Below, one piece after another: positions 7,701 to 28,567 of a DNA stretch of 46,951 bases. Below the pieces are notes generated by a model that had not been told where the DNA came from, did not search any database, and saw nothing but the letters and a program-made list of their open reading frames with translations. The position numbers were made by a program, and so were the translations under genes. The first letter of the stretch is position 1, and each line of letters starts with the position of its first letter. Source of the DNA: an uncultured archaeon. Its GTDB lineage: Archaea > Thermoplasmatota > Penumbrarchaeia > JASLWR01. The stretch lies in the NCBI GenBank assembly GCA_964430885.1, contig CAYSHM010000025.1, forward strand, positions 1 to 46,951. The letters run 5' to 3'.

Positions 7701-8530
7701 TAACTACCAGCATAGTTTCTCATACCGAAACCTTGACTGTGGAAAGCCGCATCATCTGGACATTCGTCAGAATCGGTATCGTGGGCAGGCACCCCCCATG
7801 CATAACCTATTGCCTCAATCCCTGAATGCCAGTTCACCCCGGAAATGAACAGGTGCTCGGACATAAGAAGGTGGACTGCATGAGCTCCTATGGTTGTGAA
7901 AGGAATGTTCTCTGGATCATAGGAGAAATCCCTGTTCAGATCTTCACCATCACCATCCACTCTGACGTTCTCCTCCAATCCATATGGGTTCAAGCATGGT
8001 ATGATGTAAATTTCTCTAGTATCCACCAAATGGCGGATATAACTGTCGTTCCGGTAATTGTCCAGAAGTGTTCTTGCTAGGTACATTGCCGCGGGTACCG
8101 CGATAGCCTCATTACCGTGTATTCCTCCCAGGAACAGCACTTCGGGTGTAGTATCCCTGACCCTGCTTTCATTTGTTATTCGTAATATATATACTTTGTA
8201 GCCGTCAGCACAGTCCGACAAACCGAACCTGTCCTGGGCAGTTGTGAGGTCAACCAGGTTAGGCCAGGTGCTGTTCATTAGATTGAGTTCTGCAGTCATT
8301 GTGCTATAGCTGAAATAGTCATATTGAATAATGTTTCTATTTTTGGCAGTACAATAACTGGTATCAAATTCGGCAGAGTGATATAATGATGCGGATTTTT
8401 TTTCTATCTCCTTTTCGAATTCCGTTGAAGAAGAAAGGTAGGGTATGCAGGTCAAGAATAATAAAAATGCGATAACAACAAGTATTAAGAATATTTGATG
8501 AAATGGAGCTTCTTCCTCCTTGGAATTCAT
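4793..8530 (-). CDS. Secreted, C-terminally anchored M14 zinc carboxypeptidase with Ig-like repeats
   Basis: Signal/TM at the N-terminus; GGIHGNE (HxxE), LNPYG, DLNRDF, NWHSG, YTVEIS; C-terminal TM followed by RIRRK. Confidence 0.88.
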   Translation of the reverse strand: MNSKEEEAPFHQIFLILVVIAFLLFLTCIPYLSSSTEFEKEIEKKSASLYHSAEFDTSYCTAKNRNIIQYDYFSYSTMTAELNLMNSTWPNLVDLTTAQDRFGLSDCADGYKVYILRITNESRVRDTTPEVLFLGGIHGNEAIAVPAAMYLARTLLDNYRNDSYIRHLVDTREIYIIPCLNPYGLEENVRVDGDGEDLNRDFSYDPENIPFTTIGAHAVHLLMSEHLFISGVNWHSGIEAIGYAWGVPAHDTDSDECPDDAAFHSQGFGMRNYAGSYSGYYPTGRNNQVIYWARGAFSDYAYAASWDAANNEPGWNTDGCRSLGYTVEISSTKEPSITTFGTSEDIYTPGGNGDGYISKNIRLGLYVIDTISPYVTIHDNGIPEGPLLPGESFELEWIVGGCEEVDKTTIAFGSDPDPFNNSQETLNGPMGESSWEGKDDGGNPYTLKKFRRTLNAPDEPGTYYYIISSQVDGFVTDQNTPDPEVEPQSYYANLRSRDNYEFTNGENRLICKKNFTSKIFSIQVQDRIEIIDYPLHMNAGSIAVVNWTVNIRGEIQKTNIAWGDEDPLITSGSELNGTLIADSTYSAAIDLPDSWGSTYVRCFAENSTGHSAFSDMVIINTSPHVSIISLNETSLKGNDTMVVWSVQGADHVDETRLICSYNSDSWDSPVISIGPYSGNPGPFESKFTLPNSSGLLYLRAEAKVNGNDTLFTSQISSIILYDLITISQVNIDYSGGDEQKLDINKMTLVYSEKPTETAGLGPIENSTYTIEDILGSETISGNMSFDENNGSWYSLGIDVSSLQEGTHTVIFNFTYLGKYIQTKTSYGSSFIIDHIVNITNHSSDLDSDLNYQIKDITLNTSKSDQPHITNIEMVSSRIFFEGYEDGKKIAELDYGDMLTFNDISKTWQTGKINLSGVIPGIYRAILEMNTVFDSNIMLQCTVTIPSIPSISFTIAETNYTGLMSQTLSLKDIEYNIPEILLKSAYNGLIIQNQLVFEMGLLGGENNLTRIFDLQLENNMAADLNFNMSFLPSGVYMIEMNWFLTLSFPMFSSGNGELTLTGTSLNGSHQVQVLHVYRFTDEPVIRVVQNLDINGTYRGLDIFELNISGSRNGNYQDSLTVTAEIYDITYKGVVLKKTHLRFSSTSGNWSVSNWDISDLDQGDYFIIFKGKLNGIEFHSDDEDFGLKYFSVKSTEPDEMEPKKSRNIPTVWIFILILIPILMAIGFFIFLRIRRKYEHDVSREEVE

Positions 8531-10226: not shown

Positions 10227-12149
10227 ATGACAGAGGAAGGTCAAAAAGAAATTAAAAATTCAGATTATGACGCTGAAAAATTAACGATTCTAGAAGGTCT
10301 CAAGGCTGTTAGAAAAAGGCCAAGCATGTATATTGGCAGTACCGGACCCAACGGTCTTCATCATCTTGTCTATGAAGTTGTTGACAATTCCATTGACGAG
10401 GCAATGGCAGGGTTCTGCAATGAGATAACAATTATCATGCACGACGATGGATCCGTCTCAGTACAGGATAATGGTAGGGGTATACCTACTGATATCCATG
10501 CCAAACACGGTCTTTCTGGTGTGGAGATAGTTATGACAAAACTCCATGCCGGTGGAAAATTCGACGATTCCACATATAAGGTATCAGGCGGACTGCACGG
10601 AGTGGGCGTTTCTGTAGTGAATGCCCTATCTCTATGTCTGGAAGTAAAGGTCTACCGTAATGGGAACATATATTACCAGAAATTCGAAAGGGGAGATAAG
10701 GCTACAGGATTGGATATTATCGGTAAATCTACTAAGAATGGAACCTATGTTAGATTCTATCCTGACCCGGAGATTTTTGATGAAATAGTGTTCGATTACA
10801 CTACCTTGGTGAAAAGGGTAAAAGAACTTGCATTTCTAAATAAAGGTTTGAGTATATCCATAAGCCAGGAGAGTACCGGTGAGGGCGAGAAATTCCATTA
10901 TGAAGGCGGTATCAAAGCCTATGTGGAATATCTTAATAACAATAAGGTGGCCCTTCATGACAATGTTGTGTATATTGAAGATACCGAGGAGGATAACCAG
11001 GTGGAGGTGGCCCTTCAGTATAGTGATTCTTACATTTCAAATGTTTATTCCTTTGCTAATAACATTCATACCAGGGAAGGCGGTTATCATCTGTCAGGTT
11101 TCAAGGCAGGCCTCACACGTACAATAAATGCATATGCCAGGGAAAAAAATATTCTCAAGGACAGCGACCCAAATTTCCAGGGGAACGATATTCTGGAGGG
11201 CCTGACCGCCATTATATCAGTCAGATTATCAGATCCGCAGTTCGAAGGCCAGACCAAGACCAAGCTGGGTAATAGGGACCTTCAGGGAATTGTACAGAAG
11301 GTCACTCAGCAGAATCTATCAGAATTCCTTGAGGAGAATCCCCAGACCGGAGATTTGATTCTGAAAAAAGCAATAATGGCGGCTAGTGCGAGAATTGCGG
11401 CCAAGAAAGCCCGTGATCTTACCAGGAGAAAGTCGTTATTGGAATCATCATCACTTCCTGGAAAGCTTGCTGATTGTCAGAGTAAGGATCCAAAGGAATG
11501 CGAGGTTTTCATAGTAGAGGGTGACAGTGCTGGAGGGTCTGCCAAACAGGGAAGAGATAGATATTTCCAGGCGATACTTCCACTTAGGGGCAAGATACTT
11601 AATGTGGAAAAGGCGCGGTTGGATCGGATACTCAGGAATGAAGAGATACTTGCAATGCTCACCGCTCTGGGATGTGGGATAGGTGAGGAGTTCGACATCG
11701 AGAAATTGAGATATCATAAGATAATAATAATGACCGATGCAGATGTTGACGGAGCCCATATCCGCACCCTTCTGTTGACCTTCTTCTACAGATACCTGAA
11801 ACCGCTGGTCGATAAAGGTCACGTATATATTGCCAATCCACCCTTATACAGTATTAAAAAGGGGAAGGAGATCCATTATGCCTATACTGAGAAGGAGAAA
11901 GATAACATTGTTCAGGAAATGGGTGAAAGAGGGCTGAAATTACAGAGATACAAGGGTCTTGGTGAGATGAATCCTGGCCAGCTTTGGGATACCACAATGG
12001 ACAAGGATAACCGTATTCTTATAAGGATAGACGATCCCGATGCTATTGAGAGCGATAAATTATTTTCTATGCTCATGGGAGAGTTGGTGGAACCCCGGAA
12101 GAAATTTATCACAGACCATGCCCTGGAAGCAGAATACATCGACGTATGA
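10227..12149 (+). CDS. gyrB: DNA gyrase subunit B
   Basis: [65 protein letters not shown]; RBS GGTGA at 10214-10218 favours ATG 10227. Confidence 0.98.
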
Positions 12150-12185
12150 AGATTATGAATATTACCCCATTAAGGAGAAAGTAAT

Positions 12186-15131
12186 ATGACAGATATTAAT
12201 GAACTGATAAAGGAGAGGCCAGCCATTCACCCTCTGGATATAATCAAGGAGATGAAGAGCAGCTATCTGGATTATTCAATGAGCGTTATTGTGGGCAGGG
12301 CCTTACCCGATGCAAGGGACGGATTGAAGCCGGTACACAGACGAGTTCTGTATGCCATGCACAAATCAGGCTTATATCATAACAAATCCTATAGAAAATC
12401 CGCAAGAGTAGTGGGTGATGTTATGGGTAAATATCATCCTCACGGAGATTCTGCTATCTATGATACCATAGTAAGAATGGCCCAACCCTACTCCTTGAGA
12501 TATACCCTTATCGACGGTCAAGGGAACTTCGGATCCATAGACGGGGATCCTCCTGCGGCCATGCGATACACCGAATGCCGATTGGACCGGATATCAACCA
12601 CCATGCTGGAGGATATAAATAAGGAAACAGTGGATTTTTCCCCCAACTATGACGGAACCCTCGAAGAACCCGGTATTTTACCTTCAAAACTGCCCAACCT
12701 ATTGGTCAATGGTTCTTCAGGTATCGCAGTGGGCATGTCCACAAATATGGCACCTCACAATTTAAGGGAGGTCTGTTCTGGCATAATTGCCCTTCTGGAT
12801 GACCCCTTGCTTACCTCACTGGATCTAATGGACCACATTAAGGGACCCGATTTCCCCACAGGCGGTATAATATATGGCAGAAGTGGAATACTGAAAGCGT
12901 ATCAGGAAGGAAGAGGTAAAGTTAAGGTAAGGGCAAAGTACCATATAGAGGAAGGAGAAAACAAACGAAATAGTATTGTCATAACTGAGATACCCTATCA
13001 GGTCAAGAAGGGGCCTCTTCTTGAAAAGATTGCCAAGCTGATTAGGGATAAGAAGGTAGAGGGTGTGAGAGATCTTCGGGATGAGTCGGATAAGGATGGT
13101 ATGAGGGTTGTGATCCTACTAAAGAGAGGTGCTATGGAGGAGGTTGTAATGAACAATCTCTTCAAACATTCCGCACTTCAAAGCACCTTCGGAATCATCA
13201 ACCTTGCTCTGGTGAACGGAAGACCTCGCGAACTCACCCTTAAAAGGCTTCTTGAAATATTTATCCATCATAGGATTGAAGTAATCGAGAGGCGGACAAT
13301 ATTTGATCTTAGAAAGGCTCAGCAAAGGGCGCATCTATTGGAGGGTTACCTTGTCGCTCTTGATGAGATCGATCTAGTACTGCAGATAATCAGAGCATCC
13401 AAGAACAAGGATGAAGCCTTGAAAAATCTCATGACCCAGGAATTTGGAATGGGCGAAAATCTTAAGAAATTGCTCCAGGATGTAGAATCAAGCCTGGAAG
13501 CAGCCAGAGAGGAATCTGATAGGGACCTGGATGATGTTCTTCTTGAGTTCGGAAATCCCGATAAGGCGAGGTATTCACTGGAAGAAGGCAATATTTGGCT
13601 GACCGAAGAACAGGCCGATGCAATCCTGAAAATGAGGCTTCACCGACTGACGTCAATGGAGCGCGAGGATATTTATAAGGAATTTGCCGAACTCCAAGCA
13701 ATGATAAGGCGTTTCATCGAGATACTCGGATCCGAGGAGGAGATCAAGGATATAATCAGGACTGAAACCCGGGAACTGTCTGATGTCTACGGGGATGATA
13801 GAAAGACCGAGATAAACGAGAACGTCCTTGACCTTGACGAGGAGGATCTGATACCTGTAGAGACCAATGTTATAACAATAACACAGGGCGGATATATCAA
13901 ACGAATGCATATCGATACCTACAAGCAGCAGAGAAGGGGTGGGAAGGGATTGATAGGGATGCGTACGAAGGATGAAGATTGTGTCATGGATACATTCATC
14001 ACTTGTTCACATGATTATGTGCTGTTCTTCACCAGCTACGGAAGGGTTTTTAAATTAAAGGGCTATCAGATCCCGCCCGCAGGCAGATACTCAAAGGGCA
14101 AGGCCATTATTAATCTCCTACCCAGATTGGAGGACGGTGAAAAGGTAGTAACAACCATCCCAGTATCGGATTTTGATGAGGAGCATTATCTCGTGTTCGT
14201 AACAAAAAAAGGCTTGATAAAGAAGACCGAGCTTTCGGATTATATGCACATATCCAGGGCCGGAATCAAAGCGGTGGGATTATGGGAGGGTGACGAGCTG
14301 ATTGAGGTGAAGTACTCTCATGGCGATATGGAAGTATTCATAGGCACCCGGAAGGGCCAGGCAATCAGGTTCCATGAATCCCAGGTTAGGTCCATGGGGA
14401 GGGCTGCTCACGGAGTCAGGGGCATCAGGCTCCATGAAGACGACGAGGTTGTGGCAATGGCACTTATTCCTTCAAAAGAAATAATCGCTCCTGAGGGATT
14501 GGAAGATGAGGATTACTTTGATGACGATAACCGGGATGAAGTTGAAGATGATTATGCCGGGGAAGTACCTGATTCTTCTGTGTATGATGAATTTGGAGAA
14601 TTCATACCTCAGACCGAGGGAGATCTTCCTACATTGCTGACGATAACCTGTAACGGTTATGGAAAACGTAGTTATCCTGCCTACTATAGGAAGACCCGAA
14701 GAGGTGGGAAGGGAGTGATCACCATAAAAGCCGATGAACGGAATGGGGATGTGGTATCGCTGAAAGTGGTATACCCTGACCAGGAGCTTCTTTTATCCAG
14801 TGTTAGTGGAATGATAATCCGGATCCCGGTTTGCGGAATATCCGTAATTGGACGAAATACCAAAGGCGTTACCGTCATGCGGTTAGATGAAGATGATCAG
14901 GTAACTTCAGTTGCCGTATTATCCCCCGAGGATCTTCAGAATGGAGAAGCTGAGAATGGGGAGAACGGTACTGACGGTCAAGACGAATGCATTGTCCCTT
15001 TCGAAGTAATGATTGAGGGAACCGATAGTGAAATTACCAGCGAAAATTATTCTGTAGATAAGGTTGACGCTGACGAGGATGTCGTAGAGGATGCCTTAGA
15101 GGAAGATGGTGAAATAGAGAATTTGGAATAG
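12186..15131 (+). CDS. gyrA: DNA gyrase subunit A, with two insertions and a long acidic tail
   Basis: [21 protein letters not shown], catalytic AMRYTE, GyrA box QRRGGKG, beta-pinwheel repeats. Confidence 0.98.
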
Positions 15132-15468
15132 GTTTAGGAATAAATATTTAAAATACGCCTTTTTAGATGAATGTCCAATCAACATCATATGAACTGAGAA
15201 CCAAGGCGGCAGTTATTGGTCTAGTTTTATTTCTATTCTTGTTGAGGGAGATAACGTATTCATCGATAAAACGGATCTTGAGACTAAGGTCTATACGTTT
15301 TAAACCAATATTTTTTCTCCTGCTAAACGAATGGCCTCGTGGACATTCTTCTATTCGGGAAAAACGTGAAATGGCATTATATGTTCAGAATAATGAAAAT
15401 TTTTTGCCGTAATCGTTAAGAAATCATTAAATCCAACTTTCCTTATGGGTTAACAGAGAGGTATTCAG

Positions 15469-16581
15469 TTGAAAGGAAACATAAACTGCTCTTCCAGTAA
15501 ACCTACAAAAGGCAAGTCCGATCTACAGCCTTCACATTTATGTTCGAGGTTCGAAAGCATAGGTATAAGTCTTCCAGAAAAATCACTTTCCACTGACAAT
15601 CTGATGAAGAAAATGAAGCATAAGACCAATATCGATCTAGAAAGACTGACTGGAATTGAAGCGCGTAGAGTATGCGGTAAGAACGAGGACAGCTATATGC
15701 TTGCTTTGAGTGCTGCTATGGATTGTCTTGAGCATTCAAGATACAAGTCTAAGGACCTGGAGATCATAATAGTCTGTTCCATAACTCGATACAAGGGTGA
15801 ATTCAATCACGTTTACGAACCGCCCCTGTCGCTGTATCTAAAGGAGGAGCTCGGAGCCCACGGAGCCATGAACTTCGATATCTCCAATGCCTGCGCTGGA
15901 ATGATGACAGGTGTGTACATTCTCAACAACTTCATTACAAGAGGAGTGGTAAAGAGAGGAATGGTGGTCAGCGGAGAGTATATAACTCATCTGTCTGAGA
16001 ACGCAGCTCACGATGTAAGAACCATTGCCAGCAGACAGTTGGCCTCACTTACCGTGGGCGATGCGGGTGCCGCTGCAATTATTGAGGGCTGTGGTACGAA
16101 AGATGGAGGTTTAACAGTATCCCATTTCACAACCCTAGCTAAATACAGCAGACTTTGTATAGGAAAACCCTGCGGTAAACGGCCTGGTGCGGTAATGAGG
16201 ACAAGAGCCCGCAAGATTCACAAGGTGGCCATATCGGATTCACCGCCTATATTGAAAGAGGCTCTGAGAGACAGCGGAATAGGTTACGAGGATATTGATT
16301 ATGTAATCCCCCATCAAACCTCCGAACGGGCAATTCATTCAGGCGCAAAACACCTATCAGCGTATTTCGGGGGGATGCCTAAAAACATAGTTATCAATCT
16401 CAAAGACTATGGCAACACCGCATCCACGACCCACTTTCTCGCCATGTACCGATATCTCGAGGAAGGGCGCTTCAAAGAAGGTGACAGGATCATGCTGATA
16501 TGTTTCGCCTCGGGACTTGTCATAGGAGTAGTAATTTTTACAATGGACGGAATGGTTGAACAATATGGGAGCAATAATTGA
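15469..16581 (+). CDS. KAS-III/OleA-family condensing enzyme, LstA/NltA-like (catalytic subunit)
   Basis: Triad Cys (DISNACAG), His (PHQTS), Asn (YGNTAS); YEPP motif; TTG start after a GAGGT RBS. Confidence 0.85.
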   Translation: MKGNINCSSSKPTKGKSDLQPSHLCSRFESIGISLPEKSLSTDNLMKKMKHKTNIDLERLTGIEARRVCGKNEDSYMLALSAAMDCLEHSRYKSKDLEIIIVCSITRYKGEFNHVYEPPLSLYLKEELGAHGAMNFDISNACAGMMTGVYILNNFITRGVVKRGMVVSGEYITHLSENAAHDVRTIASRQLASLTVGDAGAAAIIEGCGTKDGGLTVSHFTTLAKYSRLCIGKPCGKRPGAVMRTRARKIHKVAISDSPPILKEALRDSGIGYEDIDYVIPHQTSERAIHSGAKHLSAYFGGMPKNIVINLKDYGNTASTTHFLAMYRYLEEGRFKEGDRIMLICFASGLVIGVVIFTMDGMVEQYGSNN

Positions 16582-17506
16582 TTCTGTGGCTTTTGCCAAG
16601 CCAGGTCTTAATCCCTTCAGAAAAGGATCTGTTGACCTTGAGATGAAAGCGGGTAAAAAATGTCTGCGCAGAGCAAAACTTTCAGCTAATGATCTTGAAG
16701 TGATAATCAATGCGGGTGTATACCGAGACAAACACATCGGTGAACCATCTATCGCGAGTTTTTTACAGCGCAGAATGGGCGCAAACAATCTCTATAAAGG
16801 CGTAAGTCGTACCTTTTCATTCGACTTGAATAATGGTGGGTGTGGATTCCTTACCGGGATACGTTTGGTAAACGGATTCATTGAATCAGGGACCATAGAA
16901 TGCGGTATGGTAGCTGCTGGAGACGTAAATTCGGACGGTAAGACATCAATCGGGTTCGACCTGTCCCCTTCCGCTGCAGCCATCATCTTATCAAAGGGAA
17001 GCAAAAAACGTGGATTTTTAAGTTTTCACAGCGAAACATTTCCAGAACAAATAAACTTGTTCAAGGGGGAATTGAAATGGGAAGGGGGAGGATTAGAAAG
17101 TGGAAAAAGACCAACTAGATGGCGCAGCGGCAATAGATTGAGAATAACAATGAGCAGTAAATATGCTCGATTGTGCTCAGAGTGCTCGGCTTTGGCTCTT
17201 ATTAAATTCCTCAAACAGCTCTCCCTGAAACTGGAGGATATCGATTTGATAATTCCCTCTCAATATCCGGAAAATTACCCCGCTCTGTTATCCGAAATTA
17301 CGGTTATGAAGGGTATGAAAGGAAAAATATTGGCTGCTTCCAAACTTCTAGGTAATCCTCATACAGCCGGAATCGGGGGGGCATTGGATATTGCATTTAA
17401 GGAGGGTAGATTTCAGAAGGCGAAAAATGTTATATTTCTGTCAGTAGGCTCTGGAATCACCATCGCACTTGCTTATTACAGGAACGGGGTCAACCAAAAA
17501 CAATGA
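16565..17506 (+). CDS. Degenerate KAS-III partner, LstB/NltB-like
   Basis: Same fold (INAGVYRDKHIGEPSIA, FDLNNGGCGF, GNPHTAG, VGSGIT) but the canonical Cys position is Gly and the His is Ser (IPSQ); start overlaps the end of the upstream gene. Confidence 0.75.
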   Translation: MGAIIDSVAFAKPGLNPFRKGSVDLEMKAGKKCLRRAKLSANDLEVIINAGVYRDKHIGEPSIASFLQRRMGANNLYKGVSRTFSFDLNNGGCGFLTGIRLVNGFIESGTIECGMVAAGDVNSDGKTSIGFDLSPSAAAIILSKGSKKRGFLSFHSETFPEQINLFKGELKWEGGGLESGKRPTRWRSGNRLRITMSSKYARLCSECSALALIKFLKQLSLKLEDIDLIIPSQYPENYPALLSEITVMKGMKGKILAASKLLGNPHTAGIGGALDIAFKEGRFQKAKNVIFLSVGSGITIALAYYRNGVNQKQ

Positions 17507-17515
17507 GGTGAATCA

Positions 17516-19159
17516 TTGGGAGCACCCTCGCATATTACCGGGTACAGGCATATAGCTGAACTACTTTCTCGAACGGTGGACCTTTACGGCCCCAGAATGG
17601 CGATTATAATTCCTGAAAGCAACAAATCAGTTACATTTGCCCAGCTCCAGTCATTGATTAACCGCTACAGCAGCGGATTGATAGACTTGGGTATCAAGAA
17701 GGGTATGAAGACAATTATAATGCTCAGGCCAGGGCCTGAATTCTTAGCCGTAGTCTTCGCTCTTCTGAGAATAGGTGCCGTTCCTGTAATGATAGACCCG
17801 GCTATGGGAACCCGAAAGATGGCTGTGGCTTTGAATTGTGTGAAGGCGGAGGCATTCATAGGCATTTCACGGGCCCACCTTCTTCGGTTGTTCTATCCCT
17901 CCTGTTTCAAGGAAGTAAAAATAAAAATAACACACGGGAGGAGATGGTTCTGGGGGGGAGAAAAGCTGCGTGATGTCGGAAAAGTAAAAGGGAGGCTTCA
18001 GACGAATAACGATGATCGTCCCTTCGTCTATAATGAAACTGCGGCAATCTTCTTTACAAGCGGAAGCACAGGCGTACCCAAGGGTGTGGAGTACACCCAC
18101 AGAATGTTCCTTGCCCAAATAGACCTCATGAGCTCCCATTACCAATTTGGAAAAGGAGCGAAGGACCTCACTACTTTTCCCCTTTTCTCTCTTTTCGATG
18201 CAGCTTTAGGGGTTACATCAGTGCTTCCGAGCATGGATTTCTCACACCCGGGGAGTGCAGATCCCAAAAAGATTATCGATGCAGTATCACGCTACGGCAC
18301 CACCCACATGTTCGCTTCACCTGCCATACTCAGGATACTCACTGGTTATGCTGGTAAAATCGGAGACCGATTAAAGACTCTTAGAATTGTCATCACAGGG
18401 GGGGCCCCGGTTGACATCCCTCTGCTAAGAAACGTTGGTAATATACTCCCGACAGAAGCCCGTATTCATGTTACTTACGGAGCTACGGAAGCCCTCCCCA
18501 TGACCGATGTTATAGCCTCTGACATCCCTCAGGATCAAGAGGAAGTGACCTCAAAAGGTGGCGGAATCTGTGTAGGACGACCACTACCGGGAGTGGACAT
18601 GAAGATCATACGAATCACCGACACAGCCATTGACCAATGGAATGATGACTTGGAGCTTCCTATGGGTGAGACTGGTGAAATTATTGTAAAAGGCAGGCTG
18701 GTGTCAGAGAGCTATTTCAAGATGCCGAAGATCAATTCCTTATCAAAAATACCCTGCCATAATGGCTCAAGATGGCACAGAACTGGTGATATGGGGTGGA
18801 TTGACAATTATGGATTCCTGTGGATCTGCGGAAGGAAATCCCAGAGGGTGATCACAAATGAAACCACCCTGTTCACTGTGGCCTGCGAAGGGATCTTCAA
18901 CAGACACCCAATGGTCGCAAGGACCGCACTCGTGGGCGCGAATAGGGGCGAAAGAACAATACCCGTATTGTACGTTGAGACCAAGGGTCGTACGGATAAA
19001 AAAAAGATTATAGCCGAGCTGATGGAATTGGGAGATGTACACGAACATACCAAGAATATTAATAAATTTGAATTCATTAAGAGATTTCCCATGGATGTTA
19101 GGCATAATTCCAAAATCAACCGGGAAAAACTGGCCTCAAGGCTGAAACGTTTCAAATAG
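17516..19159 (+). CDS. oleC: Adenylate-forming enzyme, OleC/LstC/NltC-type beta-lactone synthetase
   Basis: FTSGSTGVPKG, YGATEALP, HRTGD, CGRKSQRV and C-terminal FPMDVRHNSKINREKL (OleC-type DxRHNxKI); RBS GAGGTGA. Confidence 0.85.
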   Translation: MGAPSHITGYRHIAELLSRTVDLYGPRMAIIIPESNKSVTFAQLQSLINRYSSGLIDLGIKKGMKTIIMLRPGPEFLAVVFALLRIGAVPVMIDPAMGTRKMAVALNCVKAEAFIGISRAHLLRLFYPSCFKEVKIKITHGRRWFWGGEKLRDVGKVKGRLQTNNDDRPFVYNETAAIFFTSGSTGVPKGVEYTHRMFLAQIDLMSSHYQFGKGAKDLTTFPLFSLFDAALGVTSVLPSMDFSHPGSADPKKIIDAVSRYGTTHMFASPAILRILTGYAGKIGDRLKTLRIVITGGAPVDIPLLRNVGNILPTEARIHVTYGATEALPMTDVIASDIPQDQEEVTSKGGGICVGRPLPGVDMKIIRITDTAIDQWNDDLELPMGETGEIIVKGRLVSESYFKMPKINSLSKIPCHNGSRWHRTGDMGWIDNYGFLWICGRKSQRVITNETTLFTVACEGIFNRHPMVARTALVGANRGERTIPVLYVETKGRTDKKKIIAELMELGDVHEHTKNINKFEFIKRFPMDVRHNSKINREKLASRLKRFK

Positions 19160-19255
19160 GGCAAATATGGGCTAAAATTTTCCAATTCATACAATTGAAT
19201 ATCTAATATAAGCATTAAAGTCTGGTAATCGAACTTTAGATGCGGAGAGAATATC

Positions 19256-20296
19256 ATGAAGGGTAAAAGAATACTCGTTACTGGAGGTGGTGGATTTCTG
19301 GGGCGAGCGCTGGTCAGAGAGCTGGTTTTCCAGGAGGCAGAGGTCAGGGTCATATCCCGTAGCGACTATCCGGAGTTGAGGACCTGGGGTGTGGAGGTGC
19401 TCCAGGGGGATATACGCGACAGAAAGGCAGTTCTTTCGGCGTGTCAAAACCGCCAGATAGTTTTTCATACTGCCTCCAAGGTGGGTCACTGGGGAAATTA
19501 TGGGGATTTTTACGATGTGAATGTGAAGGGAACCGAGAATGTGATAAAATGCTGTTCCGAATGCGGGGTGAAATCTCTTATTTATACCAGCTCCCCTAGC
19601 GTGGTCTTTGATGGAAATGACGTTACTGGTGCGGATGAATCAGTCCCGTACCCGAAAAAATATCTTTCCAATTACTGTGCTACCAAGGCTATTGCCGAGA
19701 GAAAGGTTCTTTCAGCGAATTCCGGGCGGTTCAGAACCGTTGCACTCCGCCCTCACGGTATATGGGGGCCCGGTGACAATCATATCCTTCCAAGGTTGCT
19801 GAAAAGCGCTGAAAGGGGCAGGTTGAAATGCATTGCTGATGGGAATAATCAGGTGGACCTCAACTACATCGATAATGCTGTTGAAGGACATCTAGCTGCA
19901 GCAAAACGTCTTGATGAATACGGAGAAGGAGGTGTGAACGAGATGGATGGCGGGATTTCAGGTAAGATCTTTTTTTTGAGCGATGGTGAAAGGATACGCC
20001 TGTGGTGGCTGATTAACCGAATACTTCAAATTCACGGCCTTCCTCCCGTGAAAAAGAAAATATCTCGATTTAGGGCTAAAATGATAGCTTGCTTGCTGGA
20101 AATCGTCTACAGGGCCTTGTATAAAAACACCGAACCGCCTCTAACTAGATATGCTGTGGCTGAACTCTCCTGCTCTCATTGGTACGATATAAGCGCCGCT
20201 AAAAGGGATCTTGGTTACAAGCCGAAGGTATCGGTTAGAGAGGGTTTGAAACATTTGGAGGACTTTGTAAAGGTCAGGCAGAAGGGAAGAAAATGA
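19256..20296 (+). CDS. oleD: Extended SDR, OleD/LstD-type 2-alkyl-3-oxoalkanoate reductase (3-beta-HSD family)
   Basis: ILVTGGGGFLG, YTSSPSV, YCATK, LRPHGIWGPGD, AKRDLGYKP; operon context. Confidence 0.82.
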   Translation: MKGKRILVTGGGGFLGRALVRELVFQEAEVRVISRSDYPELRTWGVEVLQGDIRDRKAVLSACQNRQIVFHTASKVGHWGNYGDFYDVNVKGTENVIKCCSECGVKSLIYTSSPSVVFDGNDVTGADESVPYPKKYLSNYCATKAIAERKVLSANSGRFRTVALRPHGIWGPGDNHILPRLLKSAERGRLKCIADGNNQVDLNYIDNAVEGHLAAAKRLDEYGEGGVNEMDGGISGKIFFLSDGERIRLWWLINRILQIHGLPPVKKKISRFRAKMIACLLEIVYRALYKNTEPPLTRYAVAELSCSHWYDISAAKRDLGYKPKVSVREGLKHLEDFVKVRQKGRK

Positions 20297-20362
20297 CCGA
20301 TCTCAGGGCAGAACAAATATGAGTAATAAGATGATAATAATAATAACAATTGTCGGTCATAA

Positions 20363-21331
20363 TTAAATAAATCTTCTTAAAAAATCAACTGTTCTCTCCT
20401 CATGCCAGTATCTCTCAATCCCCGGTTCGATAACAAAACCCAGGTGGCCGCCGAATTCAGGTGCTAGTAGATAAAGGTGAGAGTTCTGTTCCGCCTCCTT
20501 AAAGGGATATGAAGGTTTACCAAGCATAGGGTCGTCAAGAGCGTTGATAATAAGCGTAGGGATCATGATATTTTTCAAATATGGCAGTGCGGAAGCATTG
20601 TCCCAGTAATCCTTTGCGTTCTTGAAGCCGTGAAGTGGAGCGGTGTAGTATTCATCATAATCTATGCCGCTTTTTATACGCTTTAAATTCTTCAGCGAAA
20701 TGAACCCGGGCATCAGTTTTTCCTTATCCACTATCTTTTGTTCCAGCATTTTGAGCAAACGCTGGGTATATATGAAATTTCTTAACCTGGCCCCTTCTTG
20801 AGCCGTAGACTCCATATCTACAACGGAGGATACTGCGACGCTGACCTTGACAGCGGGGGAAATTTTATCACTCTTCTCTCCCAAATATTTCAGTACGAGG
20901 TTTCCCCCCAGACTGAATCCTATGATCCCTATCTGCTTATATGATAGATCCTTTTCAAGATAATTCACCACGGTATCAAGGTCATAGGTGGAACCGGCAT
21001 GATAGTATTTCCTTTTCCTGTTCATCTCGCCGGAACAGCTTCTATAGTTGAAGGCCACAGCATCCCATTTTTTGTCATTAAGTATCTTGGCCATACCCTT
21101 CATATATTTTCTCTGTGAATGCCCTTCCAGACCATGGCATAGTATAAAGGTGGCATCTCCCTTCTCACCGCTGAAATCAAGATCTATGAAATCCCCATCC
21201 GGGGTATCTATCCTCCTTCGTGAGTAGGTGATCTTAGCCTCCTTCCGCATCTTGTTTCCATAGATGGTGTTGACGTGTTTGTTGCGGAACAGGAACGGTG
21301 GAATATAATCGGGTTCTTGAAGGATAGGCAT
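20363..21331 (-). CDS. YheT/ABHD-family alpha/beta serine hydrolase
   Basis: PDGDFIDLD, HGLEG, GFSLGGN nucleophile elbow, NALDDP, GGHLGF; ATG 21331 preferred over 21388. Confidence 0.88.
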   Translation of the reverse strand: MPILQEPDYIPPFLFRNKHVNTIYGNKMRKEAKITYSRRRIDTPDGDFIDLDFSGEKGDATFILCHGLEGHSQRKYMKGMAKILNDKKWDAVAFNYRSCSGEMNRKRKYYHAGSTYDLDTVVNYLEKDLSYKQIGIIGFSLGGNLVLKYLGEKSDKISPAVKVSVAVSSVVDMESTAQEGARLRNFIYTQRLLKMLEQKIVDKEKLMPGFISLKNLKRIKSGIDYDEYYTAPLHGFKNAKDYWDNASALPYLKNIMIPTLIINALDDPMLGKPSYPFKEAEQNSHLYLLAPEFGGHLGFVIEPGIERYWHEERTVDFLRRFI

Positions 21332-21462
21332 AATTTGACCTAAGAGTGCAAAATCAATAAATTTTACGTGCCATTTATTCTCATTCAATAATGACGGTAT
21401 CCTATCGACTCATGGAGGTGAATTCGGCTCCAGATCATTATTCGGTCTCTACTCGGCCATGG

Positions 21463-21477
21463 GAAAGTTTTAAAATA
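21463..21477 (+). promoter_or_regulatory. BRE/TATA promoter of thpR-cca
   Basis: GAAAG-TTTTAAAATA about 30 nt upstream of the GGAG RBS / ATG 21509. Confidence 0.55.
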
Positions 21478-21508
21478 AATGTTGATCATTTCCAAAAAGG
21501 AGATTTAT

Positions 21509-22075
21509 ATGACATACCGTGGATTCATCAGTGTTCATGTGGGTCCGGGACCTGAACTTAAAAAGGCCCGGGGGGAGCTGATAAAGACAGGGGCATCACT
21601 GAAAATGGTCTCTTTGGAAAACCTCCACATCACTCTAAAGTTCCTGGGTGAAGTGGATCCTAATGCTGATGATGATATTGAAGAAATAATTCGAATCTCT
21701 CTTTTAAACAAATCCACTTTAGAGGTTAAACTGAAGGGAATGGGTGCCTTTCCGTCTGAAAAACGGATAAATGTTATATGGATAGGGGTTGATTCAGAAG
21801 GTATACTTGAAAATATATCCGGGTCCATAAATAGTTCAATGGAATCATTGGGATTCAAGAGAGGGAAACCATTCCAAGGTCATTTGACCCTGGCGAGAAT
21901 GAGGAACGCCAGATGTAAATCCCTGGTTCAGGATATAATTAAAAAATATTCCGCTGCCGAATTTCAGGAAAATAAGATGGTAATGGTACATCTCATGAAG
22001 AGTACTTTAACACCCCAGGGTCCAATATATGAAGTTCGCAGAACCATAGAAATAGGTACTGACCAAATTGTTTAA
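21509..22075 (+). CDS. thpR: RNA 2',3'-cyclic phosphodiesterase (2'-5' RNA ligase, 2H family)
   Basis: Two HxT motifs, LHITLKFLG and GHLTLAR; SxLTPxGPIY; adjacent to cca as often seen in archaea. Confidence 0.92.
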   Translation: MTYRGFISVHVGPGPELKKARGELIKTGASLKMVSLENLHITLKFLGEVDPNADDDIEEIIRISLLNKSTLEVKLKGMGAFPSEKRINVIWIGVDSEGILENISGSINSSMESLGFKRGKPFQGHLTLARMRNARCKSLVQDIIKKYSAAEFQENKMVMVHLMKSTLTPQGPIYEVRRTIEIGTDQIV

Positions 22076-23613: not shown

Positions 23614-26319
23614 TTAGTAATTCCTCTGTGTGTTTTCGGGAAGCATTCTTGATCCCGGTCCACTAGGATGCCCGCCCATGGCATGATTATTAGGCGTATG
23701 ATAGCCCATAGGTGCTCTGGGCTCTCCTCCGGCCATGGGCGGCCGAGGTGCCCCGTCGTCCATTGTTTCTCCCTGGGGCATCTTGCCTGAACCGATTCTG
23801 GCGTCTGGTTCTTCATTGTACACATGCTTGGGGGGTCTAGGCCTGGTTTCGGGTTCTGGAGTCAGTTCCTCCATGGGGGGCATAGGTTCCTCATGGTGCC
23901 TGTGCTCCTTGTGCTTCTTGTGTTTTTTCTCCTTCTTCTTCTTGATGAACTTTTTTCTTGTATAGAAGAATATGAAGGGAAGGAAAATTATCATTATTAT
24001 CCCTATAACTGCGAAGATAATGTAGAACCATCCTGTTCCGTAATGCTCCAGTTCAAGTTTATTATGGTCCATGGGTGCCTTGTCTATCTTCACCAGTATG
24101 GTCAGTGGAGCGGACTGGGAATACCTGATAAGTTGTCCTTTGCTGTTCTTGTACTGGACCCTTCCAGTGAGATTGTAGATTGTCCCGGCATCCACTTTGT
24201 GCGCCTTGAGCTTGAATATCAGTGTTCTGGACTGGGACACATTGAGGTCGAATGGTGCGGAGATAAGTGAATCGGTCTCCTTCTGCATCTCAAACTGATT
24301 GTTGTTGTCAAGCAGCTGGAGGGTAATGTTGGTAGCTTTACTTCCTCCGATATTGCTGACCGTGACCTTTAGATCGAACTTGTCTCCCTCATGTATCCAG
24401 GGGGTTTCAACTTTTGTAACCACAAGCTGAGGCGGGATTGGAATTATCTCCAAGGGCATCATAACTGTTCTAGTAATGCTTTCTTCCAGATGATTTGTGG
24501 CCTGAACCTTTATGGGTATATCATGGGTTCCAAGGGTCGCACCTTCCTTCACATTCACATTGAACTGCAGTGTAGTAAAACCGCCGCTGTTGAGATTATC
24601 TACGGTTATGAAATTGAAATAGTTCCGTCCTCCAGATGGGACAATGGGCAGTTTGCTTGACGGGGCGATGGAGATATTCAGTTGATGAAGATCATAACCA
24701 TCAGTGTTCTGCAGCGTAATGAAAAGGTTAGCTTCTATAGTTCCCGGCTGAAATACCTGATTAGTCGTAGCCTCGAGGTCTAAAAGGGAATCCTCCACTA
24801 AAACGTAAATATAGGCATCATCATCGGGTTCCTCCTTTCCCCTGGCCTGCATGATCACATTGTATTCATCCTCGTCGGTATCCTTGTCTATGGATGAACC
24901 TCCCAGAACGCCTGTATCAAAGAATTTTGCATCATACATCACAGGTATGACATATTTGCCGGACGGTATATCATTTCTTACTATTACCTCAAAGCTGACC
25001 GTAGTCGAGTCTCCTACTTTCAGTTCGTTGATGGTCTTTTCCGCACCGAAATCCTTTATCTGTGCCTGGTTGTCCTCATCGTAATAGAATCCTGTGGTAT
25101 AGAAATATCTGGCATTGGATAGGTCCAAAGCCACCTCGATATCCGTGAGATCGACATTTCCATCGTTGGTAAAACTAGCGGTCAAAGTTACTTTTTTATC
25201 CTCCAATTCCTGATCGAGTTCCTTTACGGGTACTGTCAGGACCGCACTGTCTTGGGGGGCCAGAATCGGTGTAAATTCCACGGTGACCTGAAGTTTTATT
25301 CCCCTTTCAGTGATGGTCACATCGTTGTTTGCGTCTCCGTCGTCATAAAAGCGTGTATATGTGATGGTAAGGGACAGTTCGTAATATCCAGGGTCTGCAT
25401 TCTCATCTACATTGATCCTCCAGTAGAGTGTTCCGCCGTTACCTATGGCCAATTCCTTTTTGTATGCATTCTTGTAGGATGTGGGAATTTCGATCTCAGT
25501 GCCGGAGTATGACAGAGTGCCCTGAATGTCTCCAATATCGTCAACATGTGTAGCAAGACCTGTCAGTCCGATCTTCTGCCTGGCAGCACCAGCGTAAAGG
25601 GTTGCACCGGGAGTGTCATTGGGGGAATATATTGTAGCCCCTTCCTTCTTCTCGACATCAATTCCGCTCTGGATCTCCAGTTCCACATAGAAATCCTCCA
25701 TTCGGCTAACATGCTGGTAACCGGTTGAATTGTTATAGTCCACCCTTATCTTATACCTGAGCTGAACATGGATGGTATAGATACCGGAAATGGTTGAATC
25801 CTTGACATTCAATCTGAAATCATCATTCTCATCTGTGGCATACCAGTTCCTCGCTCCACTCAAGGTGTACCCATCGTTACCCTCCCCGTTGTAGGGAGTG
25901 CCAAAACCAGAGGTAAAACCTTCAAATGGATTCTGAGTTTCGGATAGTGCTTCCACAGCATCCTCATCCATGAAATCCTGGAAGTACATATTAGAATCAA
26001 AGAGATCGTCGTTCAGCCAAGATTCATCTCCGAGATCATCCCCTTCGTATTCACTTCCATCGTAACTTTCACTTACAAAGAAGTGAAATTCATTATCCTG
26101 GTCCCCAGAATAGTAGGTATCATCACCCATTAAGGTAAGATCTAAATAAGTTGGGGCACGGTTTTTCAATACTTTCATTTTTACAAAGCTGTCATGGGTT
26201 GAATCGATTCGTTCAACTCTATTGGTATCCTGTAGCACTCCAATACCCAATCCTGCAAGGACCAGGCATAAAAATATTGGTACCAACATTATTCTTCTCA
26301 TATTATTTTTACTGATCAT
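23614..26319 (-). CDS. S-layer/COG1361-type surface protein with C-terminal TM anchor
   Basis: Signal peptide; repeated Ig/CARDB-like units (N.G...L.DI.V...L..GDS..VSF.V.V....PG.Y); TM followed by a K/H-rich and P/M/G-rich tail; RBS GAGGTG before 26319. Confidence 0.75.
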   Translation of the reverse strand: MISKNNMRRIMLVPIFLCLVLAGLGIGVLQDTNRVERIDSTHDSFVKMKVLKNRAPTYLDLTLMGDDTYYSGDQDNEFHFFVSESYDGSEYEGDDLGDESWLNDDLFDSNMYFQDFMDEDAVEALSETQNPFEGFTSGFGTPYNGEGNDGYTLSGARNWYATDENDDFRLNVKDSTISGIYTIHVQLRYKIRVDYNNSTGYQHVSRMEDFYVELEIQSGIDVEKKEGATIYSPNDTPGATLYAGAARQKIGLTGLATHVDDIGDIQGTLSYSGTEIEIPTSYKNAYKKELAIGNGGTLYWRINVDENADPGYYELSLTITYTRFYDDGDANNDVTITERGIKLQVTVEFTPILAPQDSAVLTVPVKELDQELEDKKVTLTASFTNDGNVDLTDIEVALDLSNARYFYTTGFYYDEDNQAQIKDFGAEKTINELKVGDSTTVSFEVIVRNDIPSGKYVIPVMYDAKFFDTGVLGGSSIDKDTDEDEYNVIMQARGKEEPDDDAYIYVLVEDSLLDLEATTNQVFQPGTIEANLFITLQNTDGYDLHQLNISIAPSSKLPIVPSGGRNYFNFITVDNLNSGGFTTLQFNVNVKEGATLGTHDIPIKVQATNHLEESITRTVMMPLEIIPIPPQLVVTKVETPWIHEGDKFDLKVTVSNIGGSKATNITLQLLDNNNQFEMQKETDSLISAPFDLNVSQSRTLIFKLKAHKVDAGTIYNLTGRVQYKNSKGQLIRYSQSAPLTILVKIDKAPMDHNKLELEHYGTGWFYIIFAVIGIIMIIFLPFIFFYTRKKFIKKKKEKKHKKHKEHRHHEEPMPPMEELTPEPETRPRPPKHVYNEEPDARIGSGKMPQGETMDDGAPRPPMAGGEPRAPMGYHTPNNHAMGGHPSGPGSRMLPENTQRNY

Positions 26320-26578
26320 TCTCACACCTCTAGATGATACTGAATATCGCGCTGTCAATATCATTTTTCCTTTAACGTAATAATATTATCAAATAAACAC
26401 TTAAACAGGATATAATTATTCCGATAATATACACTCCTGTTAAAGGGAATATTTTAATATTTCGCCCATAAAGGTTCTACCATTATTAATTACTTTTGGG
26501 TCCTTTTCAGGAATGTACTCCGATACTGTATTGTTTGACAAAAACTGATCCGTCCTATCAAAAATTGGGCCCATTTAA

Positions 26579-28567
26579 TTATTCTTTTTCATCCTGGTGA
26601 TCATTCCTTTTTACATCATTGCGCCTTTTTACAAATATCACTGCAACTGCGGTTAGGACAATACTGATAACAACAACCGCTATTATGATACCAGAAGAAC
26701 TGCTCATAAAACCTGCTCCCCCTTGAATTGTCTTCTGGAGGTCCACCTCAACTTCAGAAGGCAAAGAACGGGACACTCCCCTATATGCAACAGCAGTGAG
26801 ATTGGTCTTCATGTTATGAGAACTGCTGACCTCGGCAGACCAGTTCACAAACTGCCCTGGAGATTCATTTGATATGTCCAGGGTGACGGATTCACCCCCC
26901 CCTGAAAGGACAACCTTGTCTATGGTCTGTCCGGATCGGCTCCAGGCCAATCCGCTTACAATGTTCTTCCCGTTCTCAAAGGTATAGTTGGTTATGAAAC
27001 ATTGAATATCTATATCTATACCGCCGATACCAGCAAGGTCCTGGGCCATCTTCACCGCTTTATATCCATCTACTATACCCCATCCAAAATCCCTGTTCCA
27101 AAAGGGGTCGACATCAACCGTGGAAGGTTTTTCCATTCTCATTGCGGTGGCTCTAAGTATTTCTCTTGTGAGAAGAGGTTCCAGATCGGGATTTGCTTCA
27201 AGCATTAATGCTACAACTCCAGCAACCGATGGAGTGGCATATGAGGTACCTGATCCTCTGTTGCCATAGCCGTTCCCTGATGCATCGTCCAGGGGATTGG
27301 AGGAATACTGGCACTGCTGAATGTTGGTCCCTGAGGCTGAGATGTCAGGTTTGAGTTCGTCCACCGGATTGCTGTCCCCGTCATCGGTCCTAGGGCCTCT
27401 GGATGAGTAGTAGGCAACGATATCATCAGTCCTGTTCACTGTATTCCCGTCATCCGTTGCGCCGACAGTTATTGATAGGTCTGATGCACCCATCCCGGTA
27501 AATCCATTGTTGCTGGGCCCGTCGTTGCCGGCGGCCACCACAACATGCACTCCCGCTTCAACGAGTTTGTCAAGGGCCATAGAATATGGGTCCTTTCCAT
27601 CCGACGGCCCCCCGATATCGATTCCCCATGAAAGTGACAATACATCTATTCCCTGGTATTCCCCGCCTCCTGCAGGCCAATTATCATTACGGTGATCAAA
27701 GGCCCACTGGGATCCCTGCAGGGAAGCATCATAAGCATCCTGGAACAGTTCTCCAGGAGCATATCCAATAGCAGTACCTATCCTCAGGTCCACCAATCGG
27801 GCTCCCGGCGCTGAGCCCATGAACTCTCCGGTGGGTGCCCCAGTTCCCATGGCCATTCCAGTACAGGATGTACCATGTCCCTGAATGTCGTCGGCATTGA
27901 AGCTGCCGTCCCTGGGCGTCAGGAAGGTTTTGGGTTTAGATATGTCAGCGCCTCCAAGCCATTTTCCCGATAGCGATGGATGTGCGTCATCCACTCCGGT
28001 GTCCATGACGCATAGAGAAACTCCTTCGCCGGTGTAGCCGAGTTCCCATGCTGTATTCGGGGAGTACTCATCACTTTCCCTTGCTTTGATATTCCTTGTC
28101 TGAACATCCCCGAACCATGTTAACTGGCCAGTATGCCATATTCTAATTTCTTCTGATATACCAGTGATATCCCAAAGGGCCGAAAAACCGGGATGAGATA
28201 TTTCAACTATGCCAAGATCCTGATAATGGCCTATTATTCTAACTCCAGTTTCCTTCAGGGCGACGAGCTTATCCTGATTCCATCCTGATTCCAATAGGCA
28301 AAGACCGTGTTTCCCTTGATCTACCGATATTTCACTTTCCAATATGTCAGAGACCCTGTTGCCGTTCAAGTCCCACCATTTTTCAGAATCATCATGTACA
28401 TCCATTTTGCTGGATTCGGAACCAAGGTATATTTCACTAGTGCCTGCAGTCCTGAAACGGTTTATCACGACATTATTGGAATCAGGAGCCATTACCCATG
28501 GGGACAGACAGAAGCTCAATAGGGCTATTGCAACTAGAAGAGTAGTAGCGTTTTTTTTCAATGACAT
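26579..28567 (-). CDS. Secreted, membrane-anchored S8 (subtilisin-like) serine protease
   Basis: Triad MDTG, GHGT, GTSYATP; AAGNDG oxyanion hole; signal peptide; C-terminal TM followed by KRR. Confidence 0.92.
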   Translation of the reverse strand: MSLKKNATTLLVAIALLSFCLSPWVMAPDSNNVVINRFRTAGTSEIYLGSESSKMDVHDDSEKWWDLNGNRVSDILESEISVDQGKHGLCLLESGWNQDKLVALKETGVRIIGHYQDLGIVEISHPGFSALWDITGISEEIRIWHTGQLTWFGDVQTRNIKARESDEYSPNTAWELGYTGEGVSLCVMDTGVDDAHPSLSGKWLGGADISKPKTFLTPRDGSFNADDIQGHGTSCTGMAMGTGAPTGEFMGSAPGARLVDLRIGTAIGYAPGELFQDAYDASLQGSQWAFDHRNDNWPAGGGEYQGIDVLSLSWGIDIGGPSDGKDPYSMALDKLVEAGVHVVVAAGNDGPSNNGFTGMGASDLSITVGATDDGNTVNRTDDIVAYYSSRGPRTDDGDSNPVDELKPDISASGTNIQQCQYSSNPLDDASGNGYGNRGSGTSYATPSVAGVVALMLEANPDLEPLLTREILRATAMRMEKPSTVDVDPFWNRDFGWGIVDGYKAVKMAQDLAGIGGIDIDIQCFITNYTFENGKNIVSGLAWSRSGQTIDKVVLSGGGESVTLDISNESPGQFVNWSAEVSSSHNMKTNLTAVAYRGVSRSLPSEVEVDLQKTIQGGAGFMSSSSGIIIAVVVISIVLTAVAVIFVKRRNDVKRNDHQDEKE

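Follow-up and report, generated by a model that had tools for sequence, protein, structure and literature searches.

A candidate lipstatin/nocardiolactone-type beta-lactone operon without a detectable OleB in a marine Thermoplasmatota archaeon

The stretch of DNA considered here (the window; 46,951 nucleotides, contig CAYSHM010000025.1 of GenBank assembly GCA_964430885.1) belongs to an uncultured archaeon of the phylum Thermoplasmatota and carries four tightly packed genes on its forward strand, which resemble in content and order the bacterial clusters behind the beta-lactones lipstatin and nocardiolactone. On balance, and with somewhat more confidence than doubt, these genes are read as an operon of the lstABCD/nltABCD kind that was acquired horizontally by a marine member of the phylum, and whose end product would be a beta-lactone or the hydrolysis product of one. 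The locus itself is real and intact, and it combines an unexpected host with an unusual loss of the decarboxylase OleB and a fast-evolving homologue of the beta-lactone synthetase OleC.

The four open reading frames (ORFs) follow each other in A-B-C-D order. The first, KASa (15469–16581), encodes 370 residues from a TTG start, with ACP_syn_III and ACP_syn_III_C domains and homology that begins near residue 24, and corresponds to an LstA/NltA-like catalytic KAS-III subunit. It overlaps by 26 nt with KASb (16556–17506; 316 residues, same two domains), an LstB/NltB-like subunit that is shortened and devoid of the catalytic triad; the overlap shrinks to 17 nt if translation of KASb begins at the ATG at 16565, which is likely its true start and would turn the Glu63 discussed below into Glu60. 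A gap of 9 nt leads to the homologue of OleC/LstC/NltC-type beta-lactone synthetases (17516–19159; 547 residues from a TTG, Pfam AMP-binding), whose recorded copy of 527 residues presumably starts 20 codons further in, and a gap of 96 nt separates this gene from the homologue of OleD/LstD/NltD-type NAD(P)H-dependent 2-alkyl-3-oxoalkanoate reductases (19256–20296; 346 residues), an extended short-chain dehydrogenase/reductase (SDR). A first-pass annotation, made from the letters alone, had described four co-oriented, packed genes for an intact KAS-III, a degenerate KAS-III, an adenylating enzyme and an SDR, and this description is borne out by the ORFs, by their Pfam and NCBIfam matches and by the residues they conserve. 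Its assignment to the lstABCD/nltABCD type likewise agrees, in gene content, residues and gene order, with the descriptions given in the relevant parts of PMC12141560 and bioRxiv 10.1101/856955. Thus, by architecture and residues the cluster appears nltABCD-like, the comparison being one with published descriptions of the Lst and Nlt proteins rather than with their sequences.

As judged from sequence, the KAS pair is a widespread cassette of the LstAB/NltAB type. Scanning species-representative genomes with the KASa alignment returned at least 543 relatives, and among the best 80, which were examined, the catalytic triad of KASa (Cys142, His282, Asn316) is invariant (80/80), while KASa itself retains each of the 66 columns with a conservation of 95% or more. 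KASb is 54 residues shorter than KASa and, when aligned to FabH, has Gly95 in place of the Cys and Ser235 in place of the His; among its 66 homologues these catalytic positions never hold Cys or His, and all 66 conserve Glu63, which lies within a G-E-P loop. The same features are reported for LstB and NltB, which are truncated and triad-less and need Glu60 and Glu57, respectively, for condensation, this Glu being equated with the OleA residue that enters the active site of the partner subunit (sections of PMC12141560 and bioRxiv 10.1101/856955). A KASb gene directly follows KASa, mostly overlapping it, in 78 of the 80 related loci, in agreement with the LstB section of PMC12141560, which describes counterparts of this subunit as widespread and invariably encoded next to LstA. 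In contrast, canonical OleA, to go by titles cited in PMC7064751, is a single thiolase carrying both Cys143 and Glu117, and KASa does not conform to this homodimeric type, its roles being split over two genes and its match to solved OleA being weak.

Structure prediction is consistent with a KASa–KASb heterodimer. The pair scored 0.96 against 0.00 for the best of three controls. The mark applied is attained by 58 of 80 complexes of solved structure and by 2 of 110 pairs of mismatched proteins, although this pass may be memory of known structures, because FabH and OleA homodimers have been solved. The three runs share at least 90% of their contacts with a partner pLDDT of 88, and the predicted interface takes in KASb 59–65, the loop of Glu63, and KASa 134–144, the region of Cys142; the model shows likeness, not binding.

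KASa is 65% identical to an archaeal relative (genome G020), 63–64% to proteins of Syntrophales metagenome-assembled genomes (MAGs) and 54–60% to those of other archaea. Its tree of 81 rows splits in two. On one side stand 55 rows, mostly from Actinomycetota and Myxococcota, in which the 8 kb around the pair contain no ole gene (for instance at loci L044, L070 and L072); one member genome, G401, has no OleC anywhere, and none of the 38 genomes in the GTDB order to which the genome of L070 belongs (submitter label Mycobacteriales) yielded an OleC match. The other side is a clade of 25 rows (SH-aLRT 97) that holds the window together with Syntrophales/Thermoleophilia and Bacteroidota/Desulfatiglans groups and ten Thermoplasmatota. 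The bacterial members of this clade have their KAS pair inside ole clusters, laid out as KASa-KASb-OleB-OleC or as OleB-like-KASa-KASb-OleC-OleD.

The third and fourth proteins are recognizable by their motifs and best family matches. OleC scores 589 bits against PRK09274, above the cut-off of 478, and keeps the P-loop (T181/G183–G186/K189–G190), YGATE (Y321–E325), GD (G424–D425) and GRK (G439–K441) motifs. Across 85 homologues, D527, R529, H530, N531 and K533 of the DxRHNxKI motif never vary, and I534 is kept in 84; among 8204 six-frame ORFs of the genome the motif is found in one, OleC itself. OleD displays GGGGFLG and Tyr140-x3-Lys144, retains 46 of 53 conserved columns including these two residues, is 44–54% identical to archaeal and bacterial OleD, and matches 3Beta_HSD with 192 bits; the two reductase equivalogs NF042423 (368 bits) and NF042422 (346 bits) are its top NCBIfam matches, both under the cut-off of 580, and the next-best family lies far below them at 134 bits. 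The adenylating enzyme with DxRHNxKI and the OleD-type SDR of the first-pass annotation are thereby recovered, the name "OleC-type" for the motif being that annotation's own label, not one taken from a paper. No carrier protein, condensation domain or acyltransferase was matched by Pfam or NCBIfam within the cluster.

The missing member is OleB. Its lack from the operon had been noted at the outset, and none was detected in the rest of the assembly either (44 contigs with a total of 3.13 Mb; completeness 91.6%, contamination 1.4%): with the OleB domains of four fused OleB-OleC proteins as queries, neither tblastn (E 1e-3) nor a hidden Markov model (E 1e-2) gave a match. A profile built from 24 OleB sequences, archaeal and distant Bacteroidota ones included, reached 21.5 bits at best; for scale, the OleB proteins of a sister family of Thermoplasmatota in the same class (f7) score 270–326 bits by BLASTP against the first 295 residues of the fused protein P0057. 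No OleB-like ORF was found in the 3.13 Mb assembly, nor in the ~15 kb upstream and ~26 kb downstream of the cluster, so that no complete OleABCD set, one with OleB, was found in this 91.6%-complete genome. At the other 24 distinct OleC loci, namely 15 beside KASa and nine further archaeal ones, an OleB or OleB-like gene stands beside OleC every time, the window being the sole exception. In bacteria, a layout free of OleB characterises the clusters for lipstatin and nocardiolactone, as described in part of bioRxiv 10.1101/856955. The failure to find OleB, taken with that layout, points to the lactone or its hydrolysis product as the end product; by analogy, the cluster most likely yields a dialkyl beta-lactone or the corresponding hydroxy acid and not an olefin.

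Two candidates for the role of OleB, and one small ORF, were set aside. The 21.5-bit match is a lysophospholipase-like hydrolase that adjoins a FadD11-like long-chain acyl-CoA ligase on another contig (C16:12974–15820). An 81-residue ORF upstream of KASa (15167–15412) is probably spurious, having neither a family match nor any likeness to OleB. The second candidate is the gene next to oleD, a YheT-like alpha/beta hydrolase on the reverse strand (20363–21388) that lies convergent with oleD, between it and thpR, and contains a GxSxG serine in the motif GFSLGG; it scores 212 bits against PRK10985, below the cut-off of 267. Hydrolases of this type do not accompany ole genes at other loci. Copies 46–47% identical to it occur in two of the three other genomes in the same family, all of which are free of the cluster, and in none of the 24 f7 genomes, so the hydrolase did not arrive with the cluster.

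If the enzymes behave as their counterparts do, a pathway can be proposed in which every chemical step and every product follows from homology. KASa and KASb would form a heterodimer, in which one long-chain acyl-CoA (coenzyme A thioester) would acylate Cys142 of KASa, and Glu63 of KASb would enter the KASa active site and deprotonate the alpha-carbon. A second acyl-CoA would be condensed head-to-head, without decarboxylation, to a 2-alkyl-3-oxo acid, which the OleD homologue would reduce to the 2-alkyl-3-hydroxy acid. The OleC homologue would then adenylate the carboxylate and close a 3,4-dialkyl beta-lactone, and with no OleB to decarboxylate it, this lactone or its hydrolysis product would be the end product in place of an olefin.

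Several observations weigh against this picture. OleC stays well below the olefin beta-lactone synthetase equivalogs NF045786 and NF045785 (494 and 484 bits against cut-offs of 900 and 850) and, with the shortfall of OleD against its own equivalogs, this places both proteins, by NCBIfam cut-offs, outside the characterised Xanthomonas/Shewanella groups. OleC also retains only 101 of 112 conserved columns, the lowest value among 86 rows, has a terminal branch of 1.68 compared with a median of 0.25, and finds no non-self protein above 50% identity among 5.8 billion proteins; the long branch and the low retention mean that its chemistry may have shifted. Among solved structures, KASa is nearer to FabH (E 4e-29) than to OleA of X. 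campestris (E 2.5e-13). Since the assembly is 91.6% complete, an unlinked OleB could have been missed, and all close archaeal and bacterial relatives with OleC carry OleB, from which it follows that the ancestral pathway was probably olefin-forming.

Two rival explanations take up these points. According to one, the cluster serves an ordinary Ole pathway to olefins, with OleB encoded in the ~8% of the genome that the assembly lacks, or replaced by a non-homologous decarboxylating enzyme. The constant company of OleB at the other OleC loci speaks for it, as do the incomplete assembly and the ten f7 genomes (of 24) that carry oleB-oleC-oleD along with a KASa/KASb pair. However, at all 24 of those loci OleB adjoins OleC, which is not the case in the tens of kilobases assembled around the present cluster; the assembly offers no OleB-like ORF elsewhere, and the neighbouring hydrolase is a GxSxG serine enzyme of the YheT type with a history of its own. 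Olefin formation is therefore considered unlikely, albeit the likeliest of the rivals. The other explanation accepts condensation and reduction as in Ole, Lst and Nlt and assumes that the diverged OleC has taken on another task, such as activating the 2-alkyl-3-hydroxy acid for some other acceptor, which would give a branched, mycolic-like lipid or an ester instead of a free lactone. It draws on the long branch, the lack of any close OleC and the lost columns, and on the existence of KASa/KASb cassettes without OleC elsewhere (the 55 of 81 tree rows and genome G401), but both the adenylation motifs and DxRHNxKI have been preserved, none of the 11 altered columns falls within them, and no acceptor-handling gene lies within the cluster. 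A shifted OleC of this sort seems rather improbable.

The lactone reading also depends on the segment being authentic. An archaeal host had been proposed in the first-pass annotation, with chimerism named as something to exclude, and both points come out in its favour. The contig carries an archaeal-type cca gene (TIGR03671, 369 bits against a cut-off of 281), those relatives of the genome that correspond to named records are MAGs labelled Thermoplasmatota or Thermoplasmatales archaeon, and the composition of the cluster fits the genome: its tetranucleotide correlation is 0.868, as against 0.880 +/- 0.099 for random 4.8-kb pieces (22nd percentile), and its guanine-plus-cytosine content is 0.459, as against 0.437 +/- 0.034. 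In Logan single-run assemblies from two runs, positions 14600–22000 are each time fully contained in a single contig, of 36.6 kb and 43 kb respectively, which bridges both junctions with 0 differences and even depth; both runs come from one marine-metagenome study, maybe that of the source samples, and hence test the assembly, by another assembler, rather than the sample. Two more runs (X3 and X4) gave only short low-depth pieces and were not used as evidence, and no RNA run is among those listed as containing the stretch. An assembly error that fused bacterial DNA to an archaeal contig would accord with the fact that the source-named nearest OleC homologues outside the archaeal class are all bacterial, but the bridged junctions, the genome-like composition and the presence of the same gene families beside archaeal genes, such as primase, in relatives of the same class all speak against it. 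The contig is archaeal, and such a mis-join is very unlikely, with hardly a chance left to it.

Where the operon came from is less sharply defined. Across 401 genomes sampled from the phylum, OleC homologues of at least 45% identity are confined to the window's genome and ten of the 24 f7 genomes, and two further genomes carry ligases that are 30% identical. The ten f7 loci (L018–L027, in genomes G015, G033, G016, G026, G022, G029, G021, G017, G034 and G011) have the order oleB-oleC-oleD, the OleC frame of G011 being split in two. A KASa-KASb pair adjoins oleBCD only in G017; in G015 and G020 it is located elsewhere, among archaeal housekeeping genes. KASa occurs in 13 of 40 relatives, including all ten that have OleC, and OleC is never found alone; the three relatives with KASa only are 62–86% complete. 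Neither KASa nor OleC was detected in the three other genomes of the window's own family.

Phylogenies leave joint ancestry with f7 neither shown nor rejected. In the KASa trees an f7 clade (100/98) excludes the window, which joins Bacteroidota and f7 groups without support, and forcing the window to group with f7 costs 1.4 log-likelihood units (approximately unbiased test, p-AU 0.365). In the OleC tree the window is weakly paired (92/79) with a metagenome protein of 50% identity, and the same constraint costs 21.3 units (p-AU 0.062), the constrained group having been named after the tree was seen. Rooting the OleC tree on the two 30%-identical archaeal ligases set the window basal beside the outgroup, a placement ascribed to long-branch attraction and left unused. 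The OleC result, together with a gene order that runs A-B-C-D in the window but has B-C-D separated from A-B in f7, makes us lean towards a separate history, while a single old acquisition in the class stays compatible with the data. Either way, sequence evidence suggests an operon that was acquired horizontally, has long been resident and has become host-like in composition. No empty insertion site was recovered, since synteny in the three genomes of the same family is limited to thpR-cca (3/3), with gyrA and the hydrolase located elsewhere.

Another reading sees in the cluster the relic of an old transfer, gone silent or in decay and without present function. Its absence from all three same-family genomes, the fast evolution of OleC and OleD and the split OleC of G011 would suit such a relic. 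Against this, none of the four reading frames is interrupted, no change was seen at any catalytic residue that was checked, KASa has lost none of its 66 conserved columns, and the fully host-like composition implies that the genes stayed intact through a long residence. A relic is thus given a slim chance.

Bacterial relatives of the pair offer a further view of these clusters. In nine Bacteroidota MAG loci (L055, L059, L062, L066, L069, L073, L098, L104 and L116) an OleB-like gene is followed by an LstAB-like pair; eight of the nine also have OleC, and seven of these have OleD. The Desulfatiglans locus L071 shows the layout OleB-like, LstA-like, LstB-like, OleC, OleD. The OleB-like proteins of these bacteria are 24–47% identical to OleB, and stops interrupt several of the Bacteroidota cluster genes in MAGs built from long reads (L062, L098 and L104). 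The relevant section of a 2020 survey keyed on OleA (Surger et al., PMC7158056) lists no ole clusters in Bacteroidetes, nor any in Archaea. Searches keyed on canonical OleA miss clusters of the LstAB type.

Set against known systems, the closest match by description is nltABCD of Nocardia brasiliensis (nocardiolactone; cluster description in bioRxiv 10.1101/856955), with which the window shares the minimal four-gene A-B-C-D order, a KAS-III A subunit with the triad, a truncated triad-less B subunit with a Glu near position 57–60, a C synthetase and a D SDR, and the lack of OleB, of a non-ribosomal peptide synthetase (NRPS) and of a formyltransferase; the differences are the archaeal host and the very long OleC branch. 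With lstABCDEF of Streptomyces toxytricini (lipstatin; described in parts of PMC12141560) it has in common the LstAB-type pair, with Cys-His-Asn in A and the Glu (E60) in B, followed by homologues of LstC and LstD. The window differs in having neither the NRPS (LstE) nor the formyltransferase (LstF), and hence no amino-acid side chain is expected on its product. The oleABCD systems of Xanthomonas, Shewanella and Micrococcus share OleC and OleD homologues and the chemistry up to the beta-lactone, but they rely on a homodimeric OleA, whereas a heterodimeric LstAB-type pair is predicted here, and no OleB was found.

Within Archaea, the f7 genomes are the nearest comparison. They belong to the same class and hold the same four enzyme families (KASa 55–65%, OleC 45–47% and OleD 44–54% identical), differing in that OleB is present and the KAS pair usually stands apart from oleBCD, while the window has a single A-B-C-D operon without OleB. 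A 2024 preprint (bioRxiv 10.1101/2024.07.04.601786) reports, in the passages concerned, an entire OleABCD pathway in Hodarchaeales (Asgard), likewise a bacterial-type head-to-head lipid pathway inferred from archaeal genomes; compared by description only, it differs in belonging to another phylum and in being complete with OleB. Both cases show that the singularity in Archaea first claimed for the cluster was overstated, since 10 of 24 f7 genomes have an LstAB-like pair and oleBCD and the Hodarchaeales have OleABCD. A literature search of limited reach retrieved no archaeal mention beyond the genome-based one on Hodarchaeales and no report of an ole- or lst-type cluster in Thermoplasmatota; the parts of bioRxiv 10.1101/2025.10.24.684404 on Thermoplasmatota deal with the consumption of alkanes.

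The pathway would need acyl chains, and the genome suggests two sources. Fatty acids could be taken up, activated by long-chain acyl-CoA ligases and handled by beta-oxidation genes; acyl-CoA ligases, a 3-hydroxyacyl-CoA dehydrogenase and four acyl-CoA dehydrogenase matches are present. One contig region (C27:30000–37000) holds a beta-oxidation-like group made up of an AMP-ligase, two acyl-CoA dehydrogenases and a 3-hydroxyacyl-CoA dehydrogenase. Alternatively, the chains may be supplied by a conserved PfaA-like type I megasynthase encoded elsewhere in the genome. This protein of 3054 residues has the domain order KS-AT-ACP-KR-DH, scores 1070 bits against TIGR02813 (cut-off 1010) and is encoded on the forward strand at C5:108864–118030 (positions 10865–19999 of locus L123), among archaeal genes such as DUF531 and glnA. 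Of 41 genomes, the window's own counted, 27 contain the PfaA-like KS-AT part; leaving the window's genome aside, it occurs in all three of its own family, in 22 of the 24 f7 genomes and in the single f5 genome. In G011 and G021 the PfaA-like gene lies ~20 kb from oleBCD. In Shewanella a Pfa synthase feeds the Ole pathway, as stated in part of PMC6463001; a link from Pfa to an ole-type pathway in the present archaeon is speculation by analogy.

Archaeal membranes are built of isoprenoid ethers, and the cluster bears on the use that archaea make of fatty acids. Together with its relatives it shows that all enzymes for joining fatty-acyl chains head-to-head are encoded within one class of Thermoplasmatota, one member of which has the layout without OleB. 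It is possible, though doubtful, that a bacterial-type fatty-acyl "secondary lipid" metabolism runs here beside the isoprenoid membrane, in which a PfaA-like synthase, conserved in two or three families, would provide the chains, an LstAB-like pair would condense them and, OleB having been dropped, a dialkyl beta-lactone would be released. We know of no archaeal example of such a pathway that has been characterised. If this scheme were true, the lactone would be the first natural product of its kind, a covalent inhibitor of serine hydrolases, from an archaeon, and its role might lie in competition or in the control of the many peptidases and lipases secreted in the habitat. The four genes are short, intact and expressible in E. 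coli, which makes the choice between lactone and long-chain olefin directly testable.

The surroundings of the operon complete the inventory. Upstream lie gyrB and gyrA, and the AT-rich interval between gyrA and KASa (15132–15468, read on the forward strand) is the presumed promoter region. Downstream, beyond the YheT-like hydrolase, follow thpR and then cca. The placement of the cluster between gyrA and thpR-cca, as first annotated, is right as to these flanks, whereas the convergent hydrolase gene in front of thpR had been overlooked. Rfam and tRNA scans of the window returned nothing bearing on the cluster. Large proteins of secreted type are encoded around it, namely a 1245-residue M14 carboxypeptidase (4793–8530, reverse strand), a 916-residue CARDB protein (23614–26364, reverse), a 662-residue S8 subtilase (26579–28567, reverse) and a 1474-residue FG-GAP/fn3 protein (39098–43522, forward), which together suggest a protein-degrading lifestyle.

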